From the IMG/VR virus record IMGVR_UViG_3300033121_002286: a stretch of 20,000 nt of DNA. One strand, given 5' to 3'. The position numbers and the translations under genes were made by a program. The notes beneath the pieces are model-generated. The model saw nothing but the letters and a program-made list of their open reading frames with translations. It made no database searches and was not told the origin of the DNA. This document shows positions 1 to 16,385 of the stretch, one piece after another. Every line of letters begins with the position of its first letter. The first letter of the stretch is position 1. The stretch is from an uncultured virus (IMG/VR IMGVR_UViG_3300033121_002286) (Duplodnaviria; Heunggongvirae; Uroviricota; Caudoviricetes).

Positions 1-506
1 ATTGGAACACTGTCTGTCAAATAAACGTTGTTGTTTGATTTATAAAAGGTAAAACCATCATTATTCATTTGAACGGCATCTATTTTTAAAACGACAGGCG
101 ATCCATGTCGCTTACCAACATTGATAGCTGTTTCAAGATTATCAGACAAATGTACGTGATTTCTTGATTGTTTGGTTAGACCTAAATCCATAATTGATCC
201 AAGAAAGCGATGTGCGGTTCCATGATACAAAAAACCGGAAGGAATAAATGGTTGGAGTTCCACATCCACTTCTACACTATGCCCCTGCCTGGCTCTTATT
301 CTTTGTTGATGCTGGTCAAACTCAAACCTTTTTTTATCATTAGTTTCAACAATTTCATCAAGTTCTGTTTTTTTTATTTTTAAAATTTTTAAAATGTCAG
401 AAACATTTGCCCAACCCTTATCACTTAAAACTATCCCAACAGATTCGGGGTCATGCCTTAAAATTTTTGATAAAAATTTGCTTTGCCTTTGTAATTCTTT
501 TCTCAT
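1..506 (-). CDS. kptA: RNA 2'-phosphotransferase (KptA/Tpt1 family), 3' end beyond window edge
   Basis: Not in ORF track. Manual translation from ATG at 506: MRKELQRQSKFLSKILRHDPESVGIVLSDKGWANVSDIL...NDKKRFEF...RIRARQGHSV...LYHGT...RNHVHLS...VGKRHG...NNVYLTDSVP. It contains the Tpt1 motifs LRH, KKRF, IRAxQGHS, HGT and RxHVHLS. Confidence 0.95.
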   Translation of the reverse strand, partial: MRKELQRQSKFLSKILRHDPESVGIVLSDKGWANVSDILKILKIKKTELDEIVETNDKKRFEFDQHQQRIRARQGHSVEVDVELQPFIPSGFLYHGTAHRFLGSIMDLGLTKQSRNHVHLSDNLETAINVGKRHGSPVVLKIDAVQMNNDGFTFYKSNNNVYLTDSVP

Positions 507-536: not shown

Positions 537-3500
537 TTACAAACTTTTCTTTTTGCTTAAAACAATTTGCAACAAATCATCAAAAACACTATGTTTAACA
601 GAGTTCTCTCTGTGTTCACCATCTAAAATTTGCATTGTTATTTTTTCTTTTTTATTAAGCAACTCTTCGATATATTCATCTATTGTGTCTTGAACAACAA
701 GCCTTATAATTTGTACATTATCCGATTCTTGTCCTGCCCGATGACAACGATCCTCAGCCTGAATTCGATCTGATGGTGTCCATGGCTGATCAATAAAAAG
801 GACAGTACTGGCTGATGTCAAAGTAAGACCAACACCTGCAGCACCAATAGTTCCTGAAAACACCTTTTTCTTTTCATCTTCCATGAATTTTTCTCTTGCT
901 TCTTCCTTTTCCTCAGCCGATTTTTTCCCGGTATACCAAACAGCATTGTCTTTAAACTCCTCATATATCATTCGTGTTGTTTCAACATATTGAGAAAAAA
1001 CAACAACCTTTTCATCTCCATCAATTATGTTTCTTATAAATTCAAATGATCTTTGGGCACAAATTTTAGAAGTAAACATTTTTAATTTCTGAATTTTTGC
1101 CAAACCAACCATCCTATCATCATCTTCAGAGGTATCTTCAACAACTCCTTTTTCTAATTTTTTATATTCCCTTAATTCTTCTGGGGTTAAATAAATTGGA
1201 ATTATTGTATATGTTTTTGCTGGTAAATATTCTAAAACTCCAGGATCTTTTTTTCTTCTTCTTAAATATAAATAAGATAATTTTTGAAACAACTCTGCTT
1301 CATTCGTAGAATCATCATAATTCCAATGTCCCCACTCATCTTCTTTACCGCCACAATATTTTACTCCAAAACTGTGTGAGTTAACCCATTCAAAGGGATC
1401 AAGAAAGTTTAATACAGGAAAAAACTCATAAGGCTTGTTTTTAATGGCAGTTCCAGACATTAAAATTTTTCTTGGTGTCTTTTTAAATCCAGCATTAACA
1501 AGCTTGTATCTGCTCGATTTTACATTTTTGATATAATGACAATTAGATACCAGTATATTATTTGCATAATAATTATGATTGTCTGAAATTTCTAAATTAA
1601 AAACTTCTTTATTTCCAACACAACCGCTTCTATTGAATTGTCTATTTCCTGATTCCAGAATCTCAATACTTTCCACCCTAGAAAATTCAATATTTCCGTT
1701 TTCCTCTTGTCCAAAAATTTCCATTTTTTCATTAGATGCGTTTTTCCATCTACCTCTATTGATAATTTCAATTCTGGAAATGCCAAATCCACTTTGTAAT
1801 GATTTGGCAAACTTTTGAAAAATCCCCTCGCTGGCCTTGTTTTTATTGGATATTCCATTACCCATCCTTCTCCCAAAGAATCGTATAACCTTTGTTGCTG
1901 TTTTGTTATTTGTCCATTGCCACCTCTTGATAAAAATGTTTTTCCAACTGAACTCTTTTTCATTTTTTCTATGTTTTTTTGATCCGCCATAGGGTTGTTC
2001 AATTTCATTCGAATTGAAGATTTTTGGGCTCTTGCAGGGTTGTTCTGATAATTTTTTAAATTTGACTCTTTTACTTTTCGCTTGGTTTCTTCCGTATATA
2101 TCTTTGCCCTTATTTCCGGTTGGGACATTCTCCATTTTGCAGAACAATTCGTTGAACAAAATCTTCTTTTTTGAGATTGTTTTCCGTTTGATTTTATTTT
2201 GAATGTTTTTCCACACCATTGACATGATTTTACTATCAAAGGCTTTGAATTTCGTTTCTTTACTGCCAATTTTGATTTCTGGGTGTTCATAATTGTTTTT
2301 GAGGCGCAACTCACACTGCAATATTTTCCCTTTTTCCATATTTGCTTTTTGCTCAGCGGTTTTTGACAACACCCACACAGTATCTCCAGTTTTAATTTCT
2401 TCTGCTCTGACATATTTGTTTCCGTTTATATAGATTTTGTGATTTGGAGTGCAAACGATATCTTGTCCATTGTTTGTTCTTATTTTTAACAAACAAGATG
2501 ATGTTTGCTTCTTTATATATCTGTTTATTTTTTTATATTCATTTTTTTTTGTAATATGATTATAACTTAGTACTTTAAAATCTAAATTAAATTCAACCAA
2601 ATCTCCTATTGGAACATTACCAAATTCGGTCATAATATTTGTTTCATAAACAAAGCATTCATCAATTACGACCAAATCATAAATTGATGTTTTTAAATCC
2701 ACACCACCCTTGTCAACAAAACTACACAATTCTGTATTCCTAGATTTAACAGAATTTTCTTTAAAACACTTGGGACACATTTTGTGTTTTTTCACCTGGC
2801 TCACTTCATCAAAATCACAATAAGGATTTTGACATTTATGATGAACGTCAAACTTCAAATAAGTCTCTAAAGCATTATAACTTACAATGTGAATTTTACT
2901 TGTTTCTGGACTGCCCAATTGTAGTCCTTCTTTTTTCTTTATCTTATATTTAAAGACATATGGTACCTCATGTGTAAATTTCAAAATTTCCTTTGCCCAA
3001 ATAAGCGCAAGAGAGGCAGGACATATAATTAAAGTTTGGAAGTGGTGTTTGGCTGAATATGAAATTGCTGTAAGGGTCTTGCCCACACCTGGCTCATCCC
3101 CCAACAAAGCTACACCATCAGAACATTCAAAAAATTTAACAGCTTTCTTCTGATATAAATAAGGCTCGATCTTCATAAAAGAATAATCCTCATTTTTTAT
3201 TTCCTCATCAAAATCTCCATTCTTAAATTTTTCTACCTGGATTAATCTTTCTTTTCTTTTTTTAACATACTCTTCAACTTTCCAAATTTCTTTTTCTGAT
3301 AAATTTTCGTATTGATATAAAATGTGATTATCTTGACAATACCACATTATTTTCATTAATCCGTGAATGTTGCAAATATGAAACCAATCTTTTTTAGACT
3401 GTCCACTATCCGTAATTACAGTGTCAAAAGCGGTCTTAATCTGTTCTTTGGATATGGTTTTAAGGTGTTTTATGAGTTCTTCGTCATACCCAAACCTGAC

Positions 3501-3542
3501 CTGAAAATTGGTCCTTATACGTTTAATCTTGACTACTGGCAT
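537..3542 (-). CDS. SNF2-family (SMARCAL1/HARP-like) helicase precursor containing an intein; 629 aa after predicted splicing
   Basis: Q motif PYLYQ, Walker A LGDEPGVGKT, motif Ia LIICPASL, Walker B VVIDE/CH (split by the intein), motif III MSGTAIKN, and C-terminal motifs VVFSQY, AAGVGLTLT and QAEDRCHRAGQ. N-terminal VRFGYDEELIKHLKTI resembles a HARP domain. Confidence 0.93.
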   Translation of the reverse strand: MPVVKIKRIRTNFQVRFGYDEELIKHLKTISKEQIKTAFDTVITDSGQSKKDWFHICNIHGLMKIMWYCQDNHILYQYENLSEKEIWKVEEYVKKRKERLIQVEKFKNGDFDEEIKNEDYSFMKIEPYLYQKKAVKFFECSDGVALLGDEPGVGKTLTAISYSAKHHFQTLIICPASLALIWAKEILKFTHEVPYVFKYKIKKKEGLQLGSPETSKIHIVSYNALETYLKFDVHHKCQNPYCDFDEVSQVKKHKMCPKCFKENSVKSRNTELCSFVDKGGVDLKTSIYDLVVIDECFVYETNIMTEFGNVPIGDLVEFNLDFKVLSYNHITKKNEYKKINRYIKKQTSSCLLKIRTNNGQDIVCTPNHKIYINGNKYVRAEEIKTGDTVWVLSKTAEQKANMEKGKILQCELRLKNNYEHPEIKIGSKETKFKAFDSKIMSMVWKNIQNKIKRKTISKKKILFNELFCKMENVPTGNKGKDIYGRNQAKSKRVKFKKLSEQPCKSPKIFNSNEIEQPYGGSKKHRKNEKEFSWKNIFIKRWQWTNNKTATKVIRFFGRRMGNGISNKNKASEGIFQKFAKSLQSGFGISRIEIINRGRWKNASNEKMEIFGQEENGNIEFSRVESIEILESGNRQFNRSGCVGNKEVFNLEISDNHNYYANNILVSNCHYIKNVKSSRYKLVNAGFKKTPRKILMSGTAIKNKPYEFFPVLNFLDPFEWVNSHSFGVKYCGGKEDEWGHWNYDDSTNEAELFQKLSYLYLRRRKKDPGVLEYLPAKTYTIIPIYLTPEELREYKKLEKGVVEDTSEDDDRMVGLAKIQKLKMFTSKICAQRSFEFIRNIIDGDEKVVVFSQYVETTRMIYEEFKDNAVWYTGKKSAEEKEEAREKFMEDEKKKVFSGTIGAAGVGLTLTSASTVLFIDQPWTPSDRIQAEDRCHRAGQESDNVQIIRLVVQDTIDEYIEELLNKKEKITMQILDGEHRENSVKHSVFDDLLQIVLSKKKSL
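1542..2657 (-). mobile_element. Intein (372 aa, precursor residues 296-667) in the helicase Walker B motif
   Basis: Block A CFVYETNIMT, block B CTPNHKIY, block F/G VFNLEISDNHNYYANNILVSN followed by +1 Cys. Removing it restores VVIDE-CHYIKN. Confidence 0.95.
1592..2413 (-). CDS. Putative homing endonuclease (two Cys-rich zinc-finger-like modules, NUMOD3-like segment, DUF559/Vsr-like domain) nested in the +1 frame of the intein
   Basis: 273-aa ORF with CGCC...YCSVSC and CQWC...FCSTNC, YTEETKRKVKES, and C-terminal YKVDLAFPELKLSIEVDGKTH...DKRKTEILNFLGWKVLRFWNQEI, which is the DUF559/Vsr-like signature. Confidence 0.88.
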   Translation of the reverse strand: MSEQKKLKLEILCGCCQKPLSKKQIWKKGKYCSVSCASKTIMNTQKSKLAVKKRNSKPLIVKSCQWCGKTFKIKSNGKQSQKRRFCSTNCSAKWRMSQPEIRAKIYTEETKRKVKESNLKNYQNNPARAQKSSIRMKLNNPMADQKNIEKMKKSSVGKTFLSRGGNGQITKQQQRLYDSLGEGWVMEYPIKTRPARGFFKSLPNHYKVDLAFPELKLSIEVDGKTHLMKKWKFLDKRKTEILNFLGWKVLRFWNQEIDNSIEAVVLEIKKFLI

Positions 3543-4174: not shown

Positions 4175-4870
4175 ATGAATAATATAAAACTGGGCGACAC
4201 CTCCCCTCAGGTAAATGATTTGCAAGTTAAATTAAAGGGTTTAGGATATGGCATAAAGTCAGATTCAAATTTTGGTCAAAATACGCTTGGCGCTTTACAT
4301 TCTTTTCAAAAATTAAATGGATTGCCAGAAACTGATTTTGTTGATGAAAATACATATAATTTAATTGTTTCAGATTTAAACAACAATTCTTTGGTTGACA
4401 AGCCATCTTTACCAAAAATAATGAGTTTACATCCTAAGATTAGATTTGAAGTTTTACATCTTTTTAAAGAGCTTTTAAAAAAGAATTTAAAAATAAGAAT
4501 CGTCCAAGGTTTCAGGACATTTGCTGAGCAGGATGAATTGTATGCCCAAGGTAGAACAAAACCTGGCTCAATTGTCACAAATGCTCGTGGTGGCTTCTCG
4601 AATCATTGCTATGGTTTGTCAATAGATTTTTGCATCTTGCATAATGACGGATCAATTTCCTGGAGTTTAAGTGAAGATGCAAACCATGATGGAAACGCAG
4701 ACTGGATGCAAGTTGTTGGTTTGTTTAAATCTCATGGGTATGATTGGGGAGGAGATTGGAAGTTTAAAGATAACCCACACATAGAAAAAACCTTTGGATT
4801 AAGCGTAAGACAATTGTTAAATTTATACAATGCATTTCATTTAGATGACGATGGATATGTTACTATTTGA
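4175..4870 (+). CDS. Endolysin: peptidoglycan-binding domain plus M15 (L-Ala-D-Glu peptidase-like) domain
   Basis: N-terminal LGDTSPQVNDLQVKLKGLGY...FGQNTLGALHSFQKLNGL (PG_binding_1 pattern); catalytic region GFRTFAEQDELYAQGRT, SNHCYGLSIDF, WGGDW and DNPHIE. Confidence 0.92.
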   Translation: MNNIKLGDTSPQVNDLQVKLKGLGYGIKSDSNFGQNTLGALHSFQKLNGLPETDFVDENTYNLIVSDLNNNSLVDKPSLPKIMSLHPKIRFEVLHLFKELLKKNLKIRIVQGFRTFAEQDELYAQGRTKPGSIVTNARGGFSNHCYGLSIDFCILHNDGSISWSLSEDANHDGNADWMQVVGLFKSHGYDWGGDWKFKDNPHIEKTFGLSVRQLLNLYNAFHLDDDGYVTI

Positions 4871-12649: not shown

Positions 12650-13084
12650 TTATTGAATATCAATAAATTTAGTTTCTTTCTTTTTTTCTTCTAATTTAGG
12701 AATATTGATTTTCAAAATTCCATTTTCTAATTTAGAAGTAATCGATTCCTCGTTTACATTATCCGGCAGCGTAAAACTCCTACTAAACGAAGAGAAGCTA
12801 AATTCTTTACGAACCAAATTATCATTTTTGGTTTCATTTTTAATTTCTTGTTCGTAGGCGATGTTTAGTTGACCTTTTTCAACAGAAATTTTCACATCAG
12901 ATTTTTGTAATCCTGGCAGGGCCACATCCATAACGATTTCTTTTTCGTTTTCCGTGATGTTTGTTGCGGGTCCAACGTTTACATTTCTAATTTGAAGTGG
13001 TTGAAAAATATCATCAAAGAAGCTATCTTTGAAGAAATCGGTTAATAAACTTGGTTTGTAGTTTGATGTTTTAATTAAGTTCAT
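12650..13084 (-). CDS. hsp20: Small heat-shock protein (Hsp20/alpha-crystallin family)
   Basis: PATNITE, LPGLQKSDVKI, EFSFSSFSRSFTLP and SKLENGILKINIPK. The ATG at 13084 (MNLIK) is preferred over the track start at 13138. Confidence 0.95.
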   Translation of the reverse strand: MNLIKTSNYKPSLLTDFFKDSFFDDIFQPLQIRNVNVGPATNITENEKEIVMDVALPGLQKSDVKISVEKGQLNIAYEQEIKNETKNDNLVRKEFSFSSFSRSFTLPDNVNEESITSKLENGILKINIPKLEEKKKETKFIDIQ

Positions 13085-13147
13085 TTTTGTTCTCCTTTTA
13101 ATTTTTAATTTAAAAGAGAAAAACAAAAAATATACCAATAGAAAAAA

Positions 13148-14311: not shown

Positions 14312-15094
14312 TTAAACTACACGGTGTTTGTACTTTAATAATTTTTGCATTCTAACAGCATCTAAAACCAAACCATCTCCATTATTTAAGGTGATTATAA
14401 AGTTCTTAGACAATGCATCTTCAATTATTTCAAAACTTAATCTTGTGTCATTAATTCTAAATCCTCTTTCTGAAAAAAGAACTTCAAAAGGAGTTCCTGA
14501 CTTAGATTCAAATTTAACTTTAAAAGCTTTTTTTGCTGGTGCTTGATTTTGTTGTTGTTGTTGTGGGAAAATACTATCCATTTCGTTTATATCATTTTGT
14601 GCAACACCCATACCGGCCCTCTTTAATATTGGCATAGAAATATTTTTATCATACATTTCTTGAACTTGGCCTCTCAGTTGGTTTAGTTGTTCTGCACTTT
14701 GTTTAATTTGATCCATTTGAAGTTGGAGTGCCTTTTGTGTTTCAATGGCTTTCTTTTTCATCTCTTCCTGTTTTGCCATTAGGTTAGTTTTTGTTTGATT
14801 TATTGATTGGAGTTTTTTTTGGCTATCTTTAATTGCCATATCTTTAACTTTCCTTTTAGTTGGATCATTAATAATAGATTTTATTTTAGAATTATTCTGG
14901 ATCTTATCTTTTTCACCCTTTTCTTCTACATCCAAAAAAGAAAAAACTGGTTCTGTAATTGCCTTTAAATCCTCTTCAGTAGACTGAGTTTGTTTGTTAA
15001 TATCAATATTACCCATAGAATCTTGATCCAGGCTGATATTACCCAAAGCTGTTTCTATTATTAAATCTATTTCTTTAATACTTAATTTTTTCAT
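14312..15094 (-). CDS. Hypothetical coiled-coil protein
   Basis: 260-aa ORF with a Q/K-rich coiled coil; its start codon abuts the predicted left end of the TnpB element. Confidence 0.85.
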   Translation of the reverse strand: MKKLSIKEIDLIIETALGNISLDQDSMGNIDINKQTQSTEEDLKAITEPVFSFLDVEEKGEKDKIQNNSKIKSIINDPTKRKVKDMAIKDSQKKLQSINQTKTNLMAKQEEMKKKAIETQKALQLQMDQIKQSAEQLNQLRGQVQEMYDKNISMPILKRAGMGVAQNDINEMDSIFPQQQQQNQAPAKKAFKVKFESKSGTPFEVLFSERGFRINDTRLSFEIIEDALSKNFIITLNNGDGLVLDAVRMQKLLKYKHRVV

Positions 15095-16385
15095 AATTTA
15101 TAAGTGCAGGAAACCCATTCATCACGAAGTGTGGATGGAAGGAATGCACCTGCTTTTACATTTCCTATAATATTTTTTTCTAATATTTGAATTTTTAATT
15201 TTTTTGTACTATTTATGTATAAATGAAACTGACTCTTAAAATAAAACTTCTTGCAACAGATGAGCAATCTAAACATTTGCTTAATACCATTAGGGAAGCA
15301 AATTTGGCTTGCAATATAATTTCGAATGTGGTTTGGGAAAAAAGAATTTTTAATCAGTTTAAAATTCACAATGAAGTTTATCATTCGATTAAGGAATCCA
15401 CCAACCTTTCTGCTCAAGTAATCATACGCTGCATCAGCAAAGTGACGGATGCATATAAGTTGGACAAAAAAACCAAACGTATATTTAGACCACTGGGAAG
15501 CATAACTTACGACCCAAGAATTCTTTCGTATACTCCAAATGATACCGTTTCCATTTGGACAGTCGGTGGTCGTTTGAAAAAACTTCCATTTATATGTCAC
15601 AACAGAAATTACCTTCCTTATATTAAGGGCGAGGCTGATCTTGTTTATAAAAAAGGAAAATTTTATTTGTTTCAAACGGTAGAAGTTCCTGATGAAAAAA
15701 TAACGGATGTGGAAGAATTTATCGGTATTGATTTTGGTATTACAGATATTATATCCACCTCTGATAATATTAAACATTCGGCTGAATGGCTCAATAACTA
15801 TAGAGAAAAAAAACAAAACATACGCAGTTCTATCCAAGCAAAGGCAGACACTTCTAAGCGTTCCACAAAAAGGAATTGTAGGAAATTGTCCAAACGGCTT
15901 TCGGGCAAGGAAAAAACAACGGCAACAATAATTAATCACACCATTTCCAAATCTATTGTAAAACTTGCTAAAGAGCAAAACAAAGGAATTGCTATTGAAG
16001 ATTTGACTGGTATTCGTTTTGCTTCTAAAAAAAGAAATAAAACCTTTAGAACAAAACTTGGCAAATGGAATTTCCATCAACTTCGTTCTTTTTTGGAATA
16101 CAAGAGTGTTCTTTCCGGGGTTAAGTTGGTTGTTGTTCCTCCTGCATACACCAGTCAAATGTGTCATGTATGCAAACACATTGGAAAGCGAACAAACAAG
16201 GTTTTCGAATGTACAAATGAAAATTGCAAGGAAAAAATTCTTGACGCTGACAATAATGCCAGCAAGAACATTTCTTTGCTTGGGGTTGCTATAAATCAGC
16301 CTGAAAAATCGACTCTGTATTGCACTATGCATTCTGTGTCAGGTTTAAAACCCAATCATCACATAAGTGTGATTGGGTAGTTTAT
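15095..16385 (+). mobile_element. Non-autonomous IS200/IS605-family element (tnpB only)
   Basis: Homologous subterminal hairpins flank tnpB: left GAAA-CCCATTCATCAC-GAA-GTGTGGATGG (15110-15138) and right AAAA-CCCAATCATCAC-ATAA-GTGTGATTGGG (16347-16377). No tnpA is present. The ends are inferred from the guide/cleavage tetranucleotide rule; a left end at 15102 is an alternative. Confidence 0.8.
15223..16380 (+). CDS. tnpB: TnpB RNA-guided endonuclease
   Basis: RuvC I IGIDFG, RuvC II IAIEDL, zinc finger YTSQMCHVC...FECTNENC, RuvC III DADNNASKNI. All three catalytic acidic residues are present. Confidence 0.96.
   Translation: MKLTLKIKLLATDEQSKHLLNTIREANLACNIISNVVWEKRIFNQFKIHNEVYHSIKESTNLSAQVIIRCISKVTDAYKLDKKTKRIFRPLGSITYDPRILSYTPNDTVSIWTVGGRLKKLPFICHNRNYLPYIKGEADLVYKKGKFYLFQTVEVPDEKITDVEEFIGIDFGITDIISTSDNIKHSAEWLNNYREKKQNIRSSIQAKADTSKRSTKRNCRKLSKRLSGKEKTTATIINHTISKSIVKLAKEQNKGIAIEDLTGIRFASKKRNKTFRTKLGKWNFHQLRSFLEYKSVLSGVKLVVVPPAYTSQMCHVCKHIGKRTNKVFECTNENCKEKILDADNNASKNISLLGVAINQPEKSTLYCTMHSVSGLKPNHHISVIG

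Follow-up and report, generated by a model that had tools for sequence, protein, structure and literature searches.

The window analysed here is a 20,000-nucleotide (nt) stretch of DNA from an uncultured virus of the class Caudoviricetes (IMG/VR record IMGVR_UViG_3300033121_002286), and it possesses on its minus strand a gene for a SNF2-family helicase which is interrupted by an intein. This element is most probably a mobile intein in motif II of the helicase which carries a separate gene for a homing nuclease of the DUF559/Vsr-like (EDxHD) type, overprinted in the +1 frame of the same strand, and the probability of this reading is estimated to be about 0.85. All features of the element described below lie on the minus strand. 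The open reading frame (ORF) of the helicase precursor occupies 537..3542 (1001 amino acids, aa, in the ORF listing) and is free of stops through the intein, which occupies 1542..2657 (372 aa, precursor residues 296-667). The nuclease ORF at 1592..2413 encodes 273 aa from an ATG at 2413 to a TAG at 1594..1592, and its start falls at offset 1129 of the helicase ORF, which places it in the +1 frame. An earlier note, made from the letters of this DNA alone, had proposed an intein with an overprinted endonuclease gene, and its coordinates for the intein, for the two ORFs and for the 822-nt stretch open in both frames all hold on the ORF listing and the sequence. As a part of the same explanation, selection very probably acts jointly on the splicing ends in frame 0, on the nuclease in the +1 frame and on the absence of frame-0 stops across the nuclease.

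The helicase precursor matched the Pfam families SNF2-rel_dom (5.6e-27) and Helicase_C (4.6e-16) and, in PHROGs, the DNA helicase family phrog_62 (5.6e-90). The insertion site is situated in helicase motif II (DE|C...N|CH), where the insert follows ...VVIDE and ends in ...ILVSN before CHYIKN. The N-extein (2658..3542, aa 1-295) ends with ...YDLVVIDE of this motif and the C-extein (537..1541, aa 668-1001) begins with its CHYIKN, and three intein-less relatives (P0122, P0123 and P0124) align across the boundary as contiguous VIDE|CHYIKN. The edges of the intein are formed by Cys1 (TGC, 2657..2655) and Asn372 (AAT, 1544..1542), the latter followed directly by TGT for Cys+1. Between them the block B motif TPNH is found, and the last residues are VSN372. 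Across 42 aligned inteins C1, H73 (of TPNH) and N372 are invariant, and Cys+1 is present in the window. Frame 0 matched Pfam Intein_splicing at 5.3e-14 (52.7 bits against a cut-off of 35.8) and NCBIfam intein_Nterm at 3.7e-12 (47 bits against a cut-off of 24.5). By its profile matches, its motif residues, its predicted HINT fold and its in-frame site with intein-less alleles, the element can be assigned to the class 1 inteins.

The intein is composed of an N-terminal splicing domain (2373..2657, intein aa 1-95), a long host-frame linker (1683..2372, aa 96-325) and a C-terminal splicing region (1542..1682, aa 326-372) which ends in ...DNHNYYANNILVSN. When the intein profile was compared with solved inteins, matches were obtained solely at positions 4-96 and 344-365. 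These included the Spl DnaX mini-intein (1.1e-21) and also NrdJ-1 and gp41-1. [quoted passage not shown] A strand at 323-335 (pLDDT 78-86) marks the start of the C-terminal splicing region. Among 48161 solved chains, the best match of the model was 2imz_A (Z 20.5, root mean square deviation 2.6 over 140 residues), followed by further inteins such as 4o1r_A (Z 20.3), 8ubs_A (Z 20.2) and 6riz_A (Z 18.5), and all matches ranked 1-32 were inteins or HINT domains. The middle of the model, searched against the same 48161 chains, matched generic helices only (Z <= 4.9). As modelled, the host-frame product is a mini-intein with about 220-230 residues which have no confident fold.

The C-terminal catalytic domain of the nuclease (1598..1804, aa 204-272, DUF559/Vsr-like, with the motif IEVDGKTH...D) matched Pfam DUF559 at 3.4e-14 (53.1 bits against a cut-off of 20.6), and the same family matched all 34 aligned nuclease relatives. 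E220, D222, H226 and D235 are invariant in these 34 sequences and would correspond to the EDxHD motif of Taylor et al. In total, 19 residues are invariant across the 34 sequences and the nuclease of the window carries all of them. In a comparison of the nuclease profile with solved proteins, the DUF559 protein 3hrl_A was matched at 2.3e-13. The N-terminal region (2144..2377, aa 13-90) contains two CxxC...CSxxC pairs, with the cysteine motifs at aa 13, 32, 64 and 86, and is presumed to be a zinc-finger DNA-binding part. The zf-FCS family matched 10 of the 34 aligned relatives but not the nuclease of the window itself, and phrog_1271, which is annotated as HNH endonuclease, matched aa 10-115 (2.8e-8).

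It had been expected that searches with hidden Markov models would find a splicing domain only in frame 0 and DUF559 only in the +1 frame, and this was the outcome for Intein_splicing and DUF559 respectively. No endonuclease family of Pfam was matched by frame 0 at E values up to 0.1. The expectation that the insert holds no real endonuclease domain in frame 0 was thus borne out by the lack of a Pfam match, by the low pLDDT and by a sequence identity as low as that of an unused frame. The description of the +1 product as a zinc-finger/NUMOD3-like/DUF559 enzyme stood in part. DUF559 was recovered, and the zinc-finger is supported by the cysteine pairs and by the zf-FCS matches of relatives. The NUMOD3-like part was not, since NUMOD3 is absent among the 25 of 77 Pfam families listed for the 34 aligned nucleases.

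The frames are not open by accident. The +1 frame of the helicase contains 52 stops in 1001 codons and a single gap of 834 nt, exactly at the nuclease. When synonymous codons of the nuclease were resampled with the codon usage of the window, a mean of 28 stops (minimum 14) arose in the intein frame, and none of 20000 resamplings was stop-free. Permutation of the own codons of the nuclease gave a mean of 18 stops, again with 0/20000 stop-free, and the converse resampling test gave a mean of 9.6 stops and 0/20000 stop-free. The observed number of intein-frame stops across the nuclease is zero, and chance is excluded as the cause of the double-open frames. The window has a GC content of 30.8%. 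Nuclease codons ending in T were never found before an AA, AG or GA codon in the window (0/101), while they make up 50/172 elsewhere in the nuclease and 74/226 in the same context in the exteins. The intein frame has thus been purged of stops, as had been supposed: T-ending codons are missing exactly where a stop would arise.

To understand which frame is under selection, five distinct inteins of 365 aa were compared in an ungapped alignment (72-88% nucleotide identity); these are relatives and not the own lineage of the window. Before the nuclease ATG, within the N-terminal splicing domain, the differences peak at host codon position 3 (0.36 against 0.12 and 0.13), which is the usual wobble position of the host frame. 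From the ATG on, the peak moves to the third position of the nuclease codons, equal to host position 1 (0.395 against 0.22 and 0.20). Over the final 120 nt shared by intein and nuclease none of the positions varies much (0.14, 0.085 and 0.095), and after the nuclease stop the peak at host position 3 returns. In the middle of the overlap the nuclease frame retains an amino-acid identity of 0.68, compared with 0.48 for the host frame and 0.47 for the third frame, which is unused. Wobble and identity by frame together indicate that the nuclease is the selected protein in the middle and that the host frame is simply maintained as an open frame; the linker appears as a frame-shifted shadow of the nuclease, stop-free and without constraint of its own. 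The comparison of homologous inteins frame by frame, which had been suggested as a check, therefore points to purifying selection in the nuclease frame in these five relatives. The distances of the nuclease and of the N-terminal splicing domain were found to co-vary (r = 0.62, with 0/2000 Mantel permutations as high), and by this measure the two travel together as one unit.

The overlap reaches into both halves of the splicing domain, as the earlier note had observed. At the 5' dual-coding junction (2373..2413), the ATG and first codons of the nuclease lie over the end of the N-terminal splicing domain (YVRAEEIKTGDTVW), with the ATG in the Y-V codons of YVRAEEIKTGD. At the 3' dual-coding junction (1592..1682), the last 30 nuclease codons (GWKVLRFWNQEI...FLI*) also encode the strands with which the C-terminal splicing region begins (SRVESIEILESG...VFNLE), and the TAG lies in N-L-E of VFNLEI. 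The overlap of GWKVLRFWNQEI with RVESIEILESGN was likewise found as the earlier note described it. The last 91 nt of the nuclease (1592..1682) are shared with the C-terminal splicing region. Here the nuclease motif G-W-x-V-L-R-F-x-N reads in frame 0 as R-V-E-S-x-E-I-L-E, and both are conserved in 58 distinct loci, with G, W, R, F and N of the nuclease motif present in 58/58. Judged from this conservation, the 3' junction of about 90 nt truly codes in both frames.

The layout was then followed through relatives. A search of the protein database yielded 122 relatives of the nuclease at E <= 0.001, and the DNA of the helicase gene gave no blastn match to GenBank phages. A first scan of viral contigs returned six loci. 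Four of these agree with the window in helicase and insertion site and are open in both frames, with 47-55% nuclease identity. The remaining two, L005 and L006, are near-copies of L004 which lack 552 nt in frame (L004 3155-3707; about 3150-3160 in L005 and L006), leaving a mini-intein. The deletion lies between the imperfect repeats AAAGGAATT and AAAGGTATT. It has removed the middle of the nuclease (184 linker codons) and has kept the first nuclease codons together with the 3' piece that doubles as C-terminal splicing strand.

A profile scan extended the sample to 164 fetched loci, of which 84 are viral and 80 are from bacterial or archaeal genomes. The best 80 of 298 viral relatives and the best 80 of 295 genome relatives were kept, and some loci are the same contig from two collections. 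Among the viral loci the host frame is open across the nuclease in 82 of 84 (79 by script, 3 by eye), and the other two are the deletion forms. Among the genome loci the layout with an intein C-terminus was observed in 63, a free-standing or generic DUF559 gene in 11, no search motif in five and a remnant in one (L090), where the nuclease is accompanied by just a 175-aa remnant of the host frame. A strict script, which required a host run of at least 500 aa covering the whole nuclease run at +1, was passed by 143 of the 164 loci, with nuclease identities of 28-56% and GC contents of 0.26-0.71. The nuclease offset relative to the host was always +1. The +1 ORF is thus intact rather than disrupted in homologues, being open in these 143 loci. 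The host junctions mostly follow DE|C...N|CH..KN, with variants such as ...HN|SSILKN. When each nuclease protein was resampled with local codon usage, an open host frame never arose by chance (0/400) in any locus with an extein GC below 0.59, while at GC >= 0.66 its chance is 2-16%.

No in-frame fused nuclease was found among 1610 longer candidate proteins, which is weak evidence. One locus, L148, was called in-frame by script, and inspection shows that it is +1 as well. Two gene calls depart from the usual arrangement. P0050 runs from the N-intein into the nuclease in one frame and then stops, and P0119 runs from the C-half of the nuclease into the C-intein and extein at GWKVIR|LLERGS. Both could have arisen naturally by a shift of frame of one base, as steps toward fractured or in-frame forms, or be errors.

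It had also been claimed that standard gene callers would overlook such a nuclease. In agreement with this, all 40 GenBank phage records with a relative of the nuclease show only a helicase or hypothetical coding sequence under the match, and no nuclease is annotated in any of them. The set consists of 37 Vibrio records (including CP-T1), Pseudomonas phage MR14 and two records of Corynebacterium phage phi673, so that cultured phages are among the carriers of the layout. The frames were checked in two cases: MG592463.1 has an unannotated +1 ORF of 261 aa, and in phi673 the nuclease is on the same strand at offset +1. Genome annotation therefore misses these nucleases systematically.

Presence and absence of the element among close helicases was also analysed. 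A protein search with the C-extein gave 926 relatives with E <= 0.001; of the 120 listed, the majority are 620-650 aa long and lack an intein. In viral contigs, 13 pattern matches to close relatives of the C-extein were obtained and none was confirmed. P0122 has exteins which are 98% identical to those of the window and an uninterrupted motif II (VIDE|CHYIKN). It carries at the Walker A site (GVGK|T) a canonical intein with an in-frame LAGLIDADG domain, and a LAGLIDADG_3 domain is present in about 20 of the 120 relatives listed. The helicase family is thus targeted by at least two different inteins at two sites. P0123 (86% identical) and P0124 (71%) are intein-less, while P0220, with exteins only 45% identical, has the same overprinted intein at the same site. 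Both this sporadic presence and the deletion forms agree with a homing cycle.

The origin suggested for the composite, from a mini-intein into which a free-standing nuclease gene inserted, is plausible, as free-standing relatives of the nuclease do exist (L095, L099, L106, L137 and L141). In the Clostridia assemblies L137 (1558..2205) and L141 (2821..3465), the free-standing nuclease is the immediate upstream neighbour of a helicase gene whose DE(C/S)HH motif is intact, and that of L141 slightly overlaps the adjoining helicase gene. Such genes may be homing genes which stand alone next to their target. The composite could conceivably have originated in GC-rich DNA and then spread, because the host frame is open by chance in 2-16% of resamplings at GC >= 0.66 and in 0/400 below 0.59. 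A bolder reading, which we put forward tentatively and regard as rather doubtful, is that the overprinted state is the stable ancestral form of the intein-borne Vsr-like nuclease clade and also the source of the fractured genes. Under this ancestral-form reading, the composite could have arisen only in GC-rich DNA, where an alternative frame of about 800 nt may be open by chance, and its later spread into AT-rich phages would have been accompanied by unbroken selection against codons ending in T. One nonsense mutation in the unconstrained linker would then be enough to split a contiguous intein, which reverses the direction of the gene-breaking model of 2009. The 3' end of the nuclease could hardly be lost without harm to splicing, because GWxVLRFWN doubles as the first C-terminal splicing strand RVESIEILE; exactly this piece is retained in L005 and L006.

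According to the proposed mechanism, the helicase mRNA would be translated straight through the intein and linker. The two ends of the insert would fold into an ordinary HINT domain, with the linker as a stop-free unfolded loop only, and splicing would remove the whole insert and join VIDE to CHYIKN. The nuclease would be a translation product of its own, most likely started internally at ATG 2413, and because it would be made apart from the helicase its dose could differ from that of the helicase. Speculatively, initiation inside a translated ORF might keep the nuclease scarce. The nuclease would cut intein-less helicase alleles at motif II, and repair would copy the whole unit in. In 65 of 67 loci the first CxxC is preceded by an ATG. 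Of 60 distinct loci, 26 have a Shine-Dalgarno-like 4-mer ahead of a candidate ATG, compared with 12.6% of all positions. RNA folding around the nuclease ATG does not exceed that of shuffles (z = +1.59). A candidate internal promoter (TTTAGA-16-TATAAT, 2586..2559) was given no weight, such sites being no commoner than in shuffles.

Several observations count against a homing intein with a separately expressed nuclease gene. The penultimate residue of the intein is Ser and not the usual His (VSN|C). This residue can vary among inteins. In sequence, the nuclease resembles the characterised EDxHD enzyme I-Bth0305I only weakly (3r3p_A, E 0.026, 16.9 bits). The ribosome-binding site in the window is weak, with a GGA about 9-11 nt upstream of the ATG, and the Shine-Dalgarno count allowed several candidate ATGs per locus and is inflated relative to the background. 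Promoter-like sites in the region number 17, where 14.4 are expected in shuffles. Identical contigs from an RNA library cover only 1685-1835, 1895-2089 and 2124-2329, and such libraries can contain DNA.

Five other explanations were weighed. The +1 ORF might be a dead relic, with only the helicase frame selected in this phage. Decay does occur in the family, as in L005 and L006, which lack the middle of the nuclease, and in L090 with its remnant of a host frame. In the window, by contrast, the ORF is complete with its ATG, 273 aa and all 19 invariant residues, its relatives are under purifying selection in the nuclease frame, and the existence of an intein-less helicase with 98% identical exteins speaks for a recent gain or loss. 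A relic is therefore considered very unlikely.

It is also highly improbable that the locus is a functional fractured gene, in which the halves of the helicase are made separately and joined in trans and the open linker is incidental. This explanation draws on the same Vsr-like nuclease family, on a splicing domain which resembles the gp41-1 and NrdJ-1 split inteins and on the overlap of the nuclease 3' end with the C-intein, which is about 90 nt here and 6-69 bp in the fractured genes (PMC2677866). It leaves unexplained that there are no host-frame stops from 3542 to 537 where 18-30 would be expected across the nuclease, and separate production of the halves would give no reason to keep the host frame stop-free in 143 loci.

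Hardly more credence can be given to a linker which is functional itself, for example as a basic DNA-binding arm, so that both frames work over the whole overlap. The linker is indeed strongly basic (K+R 23%, net charge +31 over intein aa 96-325) and its model contains long helices at 99-121 and 137-176. Against this, its identity among relatives (0.48) is that of the unused frame (0.47), most of it has a pLDDT below 50, its invariant residues (R301, for example) result from the catalytic E-x-D-G of the nuclease read out of frame, and L005 and L006 have dispensed with 184 linker codons and kept the intein ends.

That the nuclease is made as a fusion by programmed +1 ribosomal frameshifting from the helicase/intein frame is barely credible. 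Both frames lie on one mRNA, the ribosome-binding site of the window is weak and the P0050 call joins the N-intein to the nuclease in one frame, all of which such a fusion would accommodate. The ATG before the first zinc-finger motif in 65/67 loci and the enrichment of Shine-Dalgarno-like motifs there speak for initiation, no conserved slippery site was noticed (without a formal search for one), and the 0 of 1610 longer candidates with an in-frame nuclease adds a weak argument. An assembly or sequencing artefact, in which two compensating indels shift an ordinary in-frame endonuclease domain, is refuted: homopolymer runs are common in AT-rich DNA, yet indels cannot remove the expected frame-0 stops, contigs of three other studies are identical and the layout recurs in 143 loci of independent assemblies and cultured phages. 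These contigs (digester, river and sludge) showed 0 differing letters and 0 gaps on 1400-2800, and one of them spans 1551-2800. The earlier note had named compensating assembly indels at both ends as a point which would refute it, and these contigs show none. The stretch 1400-2800 occurs in metagenomes of 9 studies, from sludge, digester, river and wastewater.

The window contains other genes of interest. A TnpB gene at 15223..16380 (plus strand; NCBIfam guided_TnpB 4.6e-39, Pfam Cas12f1-like_TNB 1.5e-17) is overlapped over nearly its whole length by an antisense ORF at 16332..15091 (minus strand, 413 aa) without a family match. The in-phase antisense frame of TnpB has 2 stops where 21 are expected, and 0/5000 resamplings had fewer than 10. 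The ATG of the antisense ORF lies 48 nt inside the 3' end of TnpB, and its stop lies in an ATGA overlap with the next minus-strand gene, at 14312..15094. An antisense run covering at least 93% of TnpB was present in 70 of 80 related viral loci (TnpB identity 56-81%, GC 0.25-0.50), and in 19 of 43 distinct loci the antisense stop has a gene start no more than 10 nt away. In L222 the run extends, without a change of frame, into a crAss tail-ring protein which is complete. Our guess is that the antisense ORF is borne by the element and allows ribosomes translating the host operon to pass through a TnpB element in reverse orientation. A literature search returned no report of such a TnpB-antisense ORF. 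The window also possesses genes for a Tpt1/KptA RNA 2'-phosphotransferase (3..506, minus strand, 6.3e-49), an Hsp20 small heat-shock protein (12650..13138, minus strand, 3.8e-25) and an endolysin with PG_binding and Peptidase_M15 domains (4175..4870, plus strand).

An overprinted intein nuclease is already a described kind, for other nucleases and strands. Gosselin, Arsenault and Gogarten (bioRxiv 10.1101/2025.01.02.630785) describe inteins of actinobacteriophages with antisense LAGLIDADG ORFs, antisense VSR-like ORFs and same-strand frame-3 ORFs of endonuclease VII type. They propose a model of mini-intein invasion and predict that such cases escape annotation. Phillips, DeSimone and Gogarten (bioRxiv 10.64898/2026.09.14.751524) describe a '+2ORF' LAGLIDADG nuclease in a dnaX intein with frame-dependent ratios of nonsynonymous to synonymous substitution, and an out-of-frame intein nuclease was reported by Gorbalenya in 1998, as cited by the preprints of the Gogarten laboratory. 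The element described here shares with these non-canonical inteins a splicing domain in the host frame, a separate overlapping nuclease ORF, an open and structureless host frame, frame-dependent selection, a proposed invasion of a mini-intein by a free-standing nuclease, and annotation which misses the nuclease. It differs from them in being a same-strand +1 gene of DUF559/Vsr-like type in helicase motif II. No paper was found which names a same-strand +1 Vsr-like nuclease in a helicase intein, and supplementary tables might list one. The non-canonical layouts were called rare by those authors, but in the clade observed here, with its 143 loci, the layout is the rule. Overprinting, presented as rare in the preprints of 2025-26, is thus the normal state for one nuclease family across phages and bacteria of many habitats.

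Two systems with related nucleases or layouts are also comparable. I-Bth0305I was characterised by Taylor et al. 2011 (PMC3239194; PDB 3r3p), who named the EDxHD family. Like the nuclease of the window, it is phage-borne with a C-terminal Vsr-like catalytic domain and a modular DNA-binding N-terminus, but its gene resides in a recA group I intron and not in an intein, and the nuclease of the window is closer to the generic DUF559 protein (3hrl_A, 2.3e-13). The ShiLan 'hidden HNH' insertion was described by Arsenault et al. 2025 (PMC11855218) as an out-of-frame nuclease gene in phage DNA methylases. As here, the nuclease gene lies out of frame inside a stop-free host ORF; it differs in that the nuclease is of HNH type, there is no splicing domain and the insert stays in the host protein.

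The fractured genes of Dassa et al. 2009 (PMC2677866) are split inteins with a free-standing gene for a Vsr-like or GIY-YIG endonuclease between the halves. There, the N-part ends in a stop which is followed by 27-51 nt of non-coding DNA, the 3' overlap is 6-69 bp, the halves are joined in trans, and no contiguous overprinted form is described. The element in the window resembles them in possessing a same-strand Vsr-like nuclease between the splicing parts of a phage DNA-metabolism gene, with the 3' end of the nuclease over the start of the C-intein. Unlike in fractured genes, the host frame has no stop here, so the intein is contiguous. About 800 nt are held under a triple constraint of a nuclease, a stop-free second frame and 90 nt of dual coding, which makes the element useful for the study of overlapping-gene evolution. 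It stands between the contiguous inteins and the fractured genes that gave protein engineers gp41-1 and NrdJ-1.

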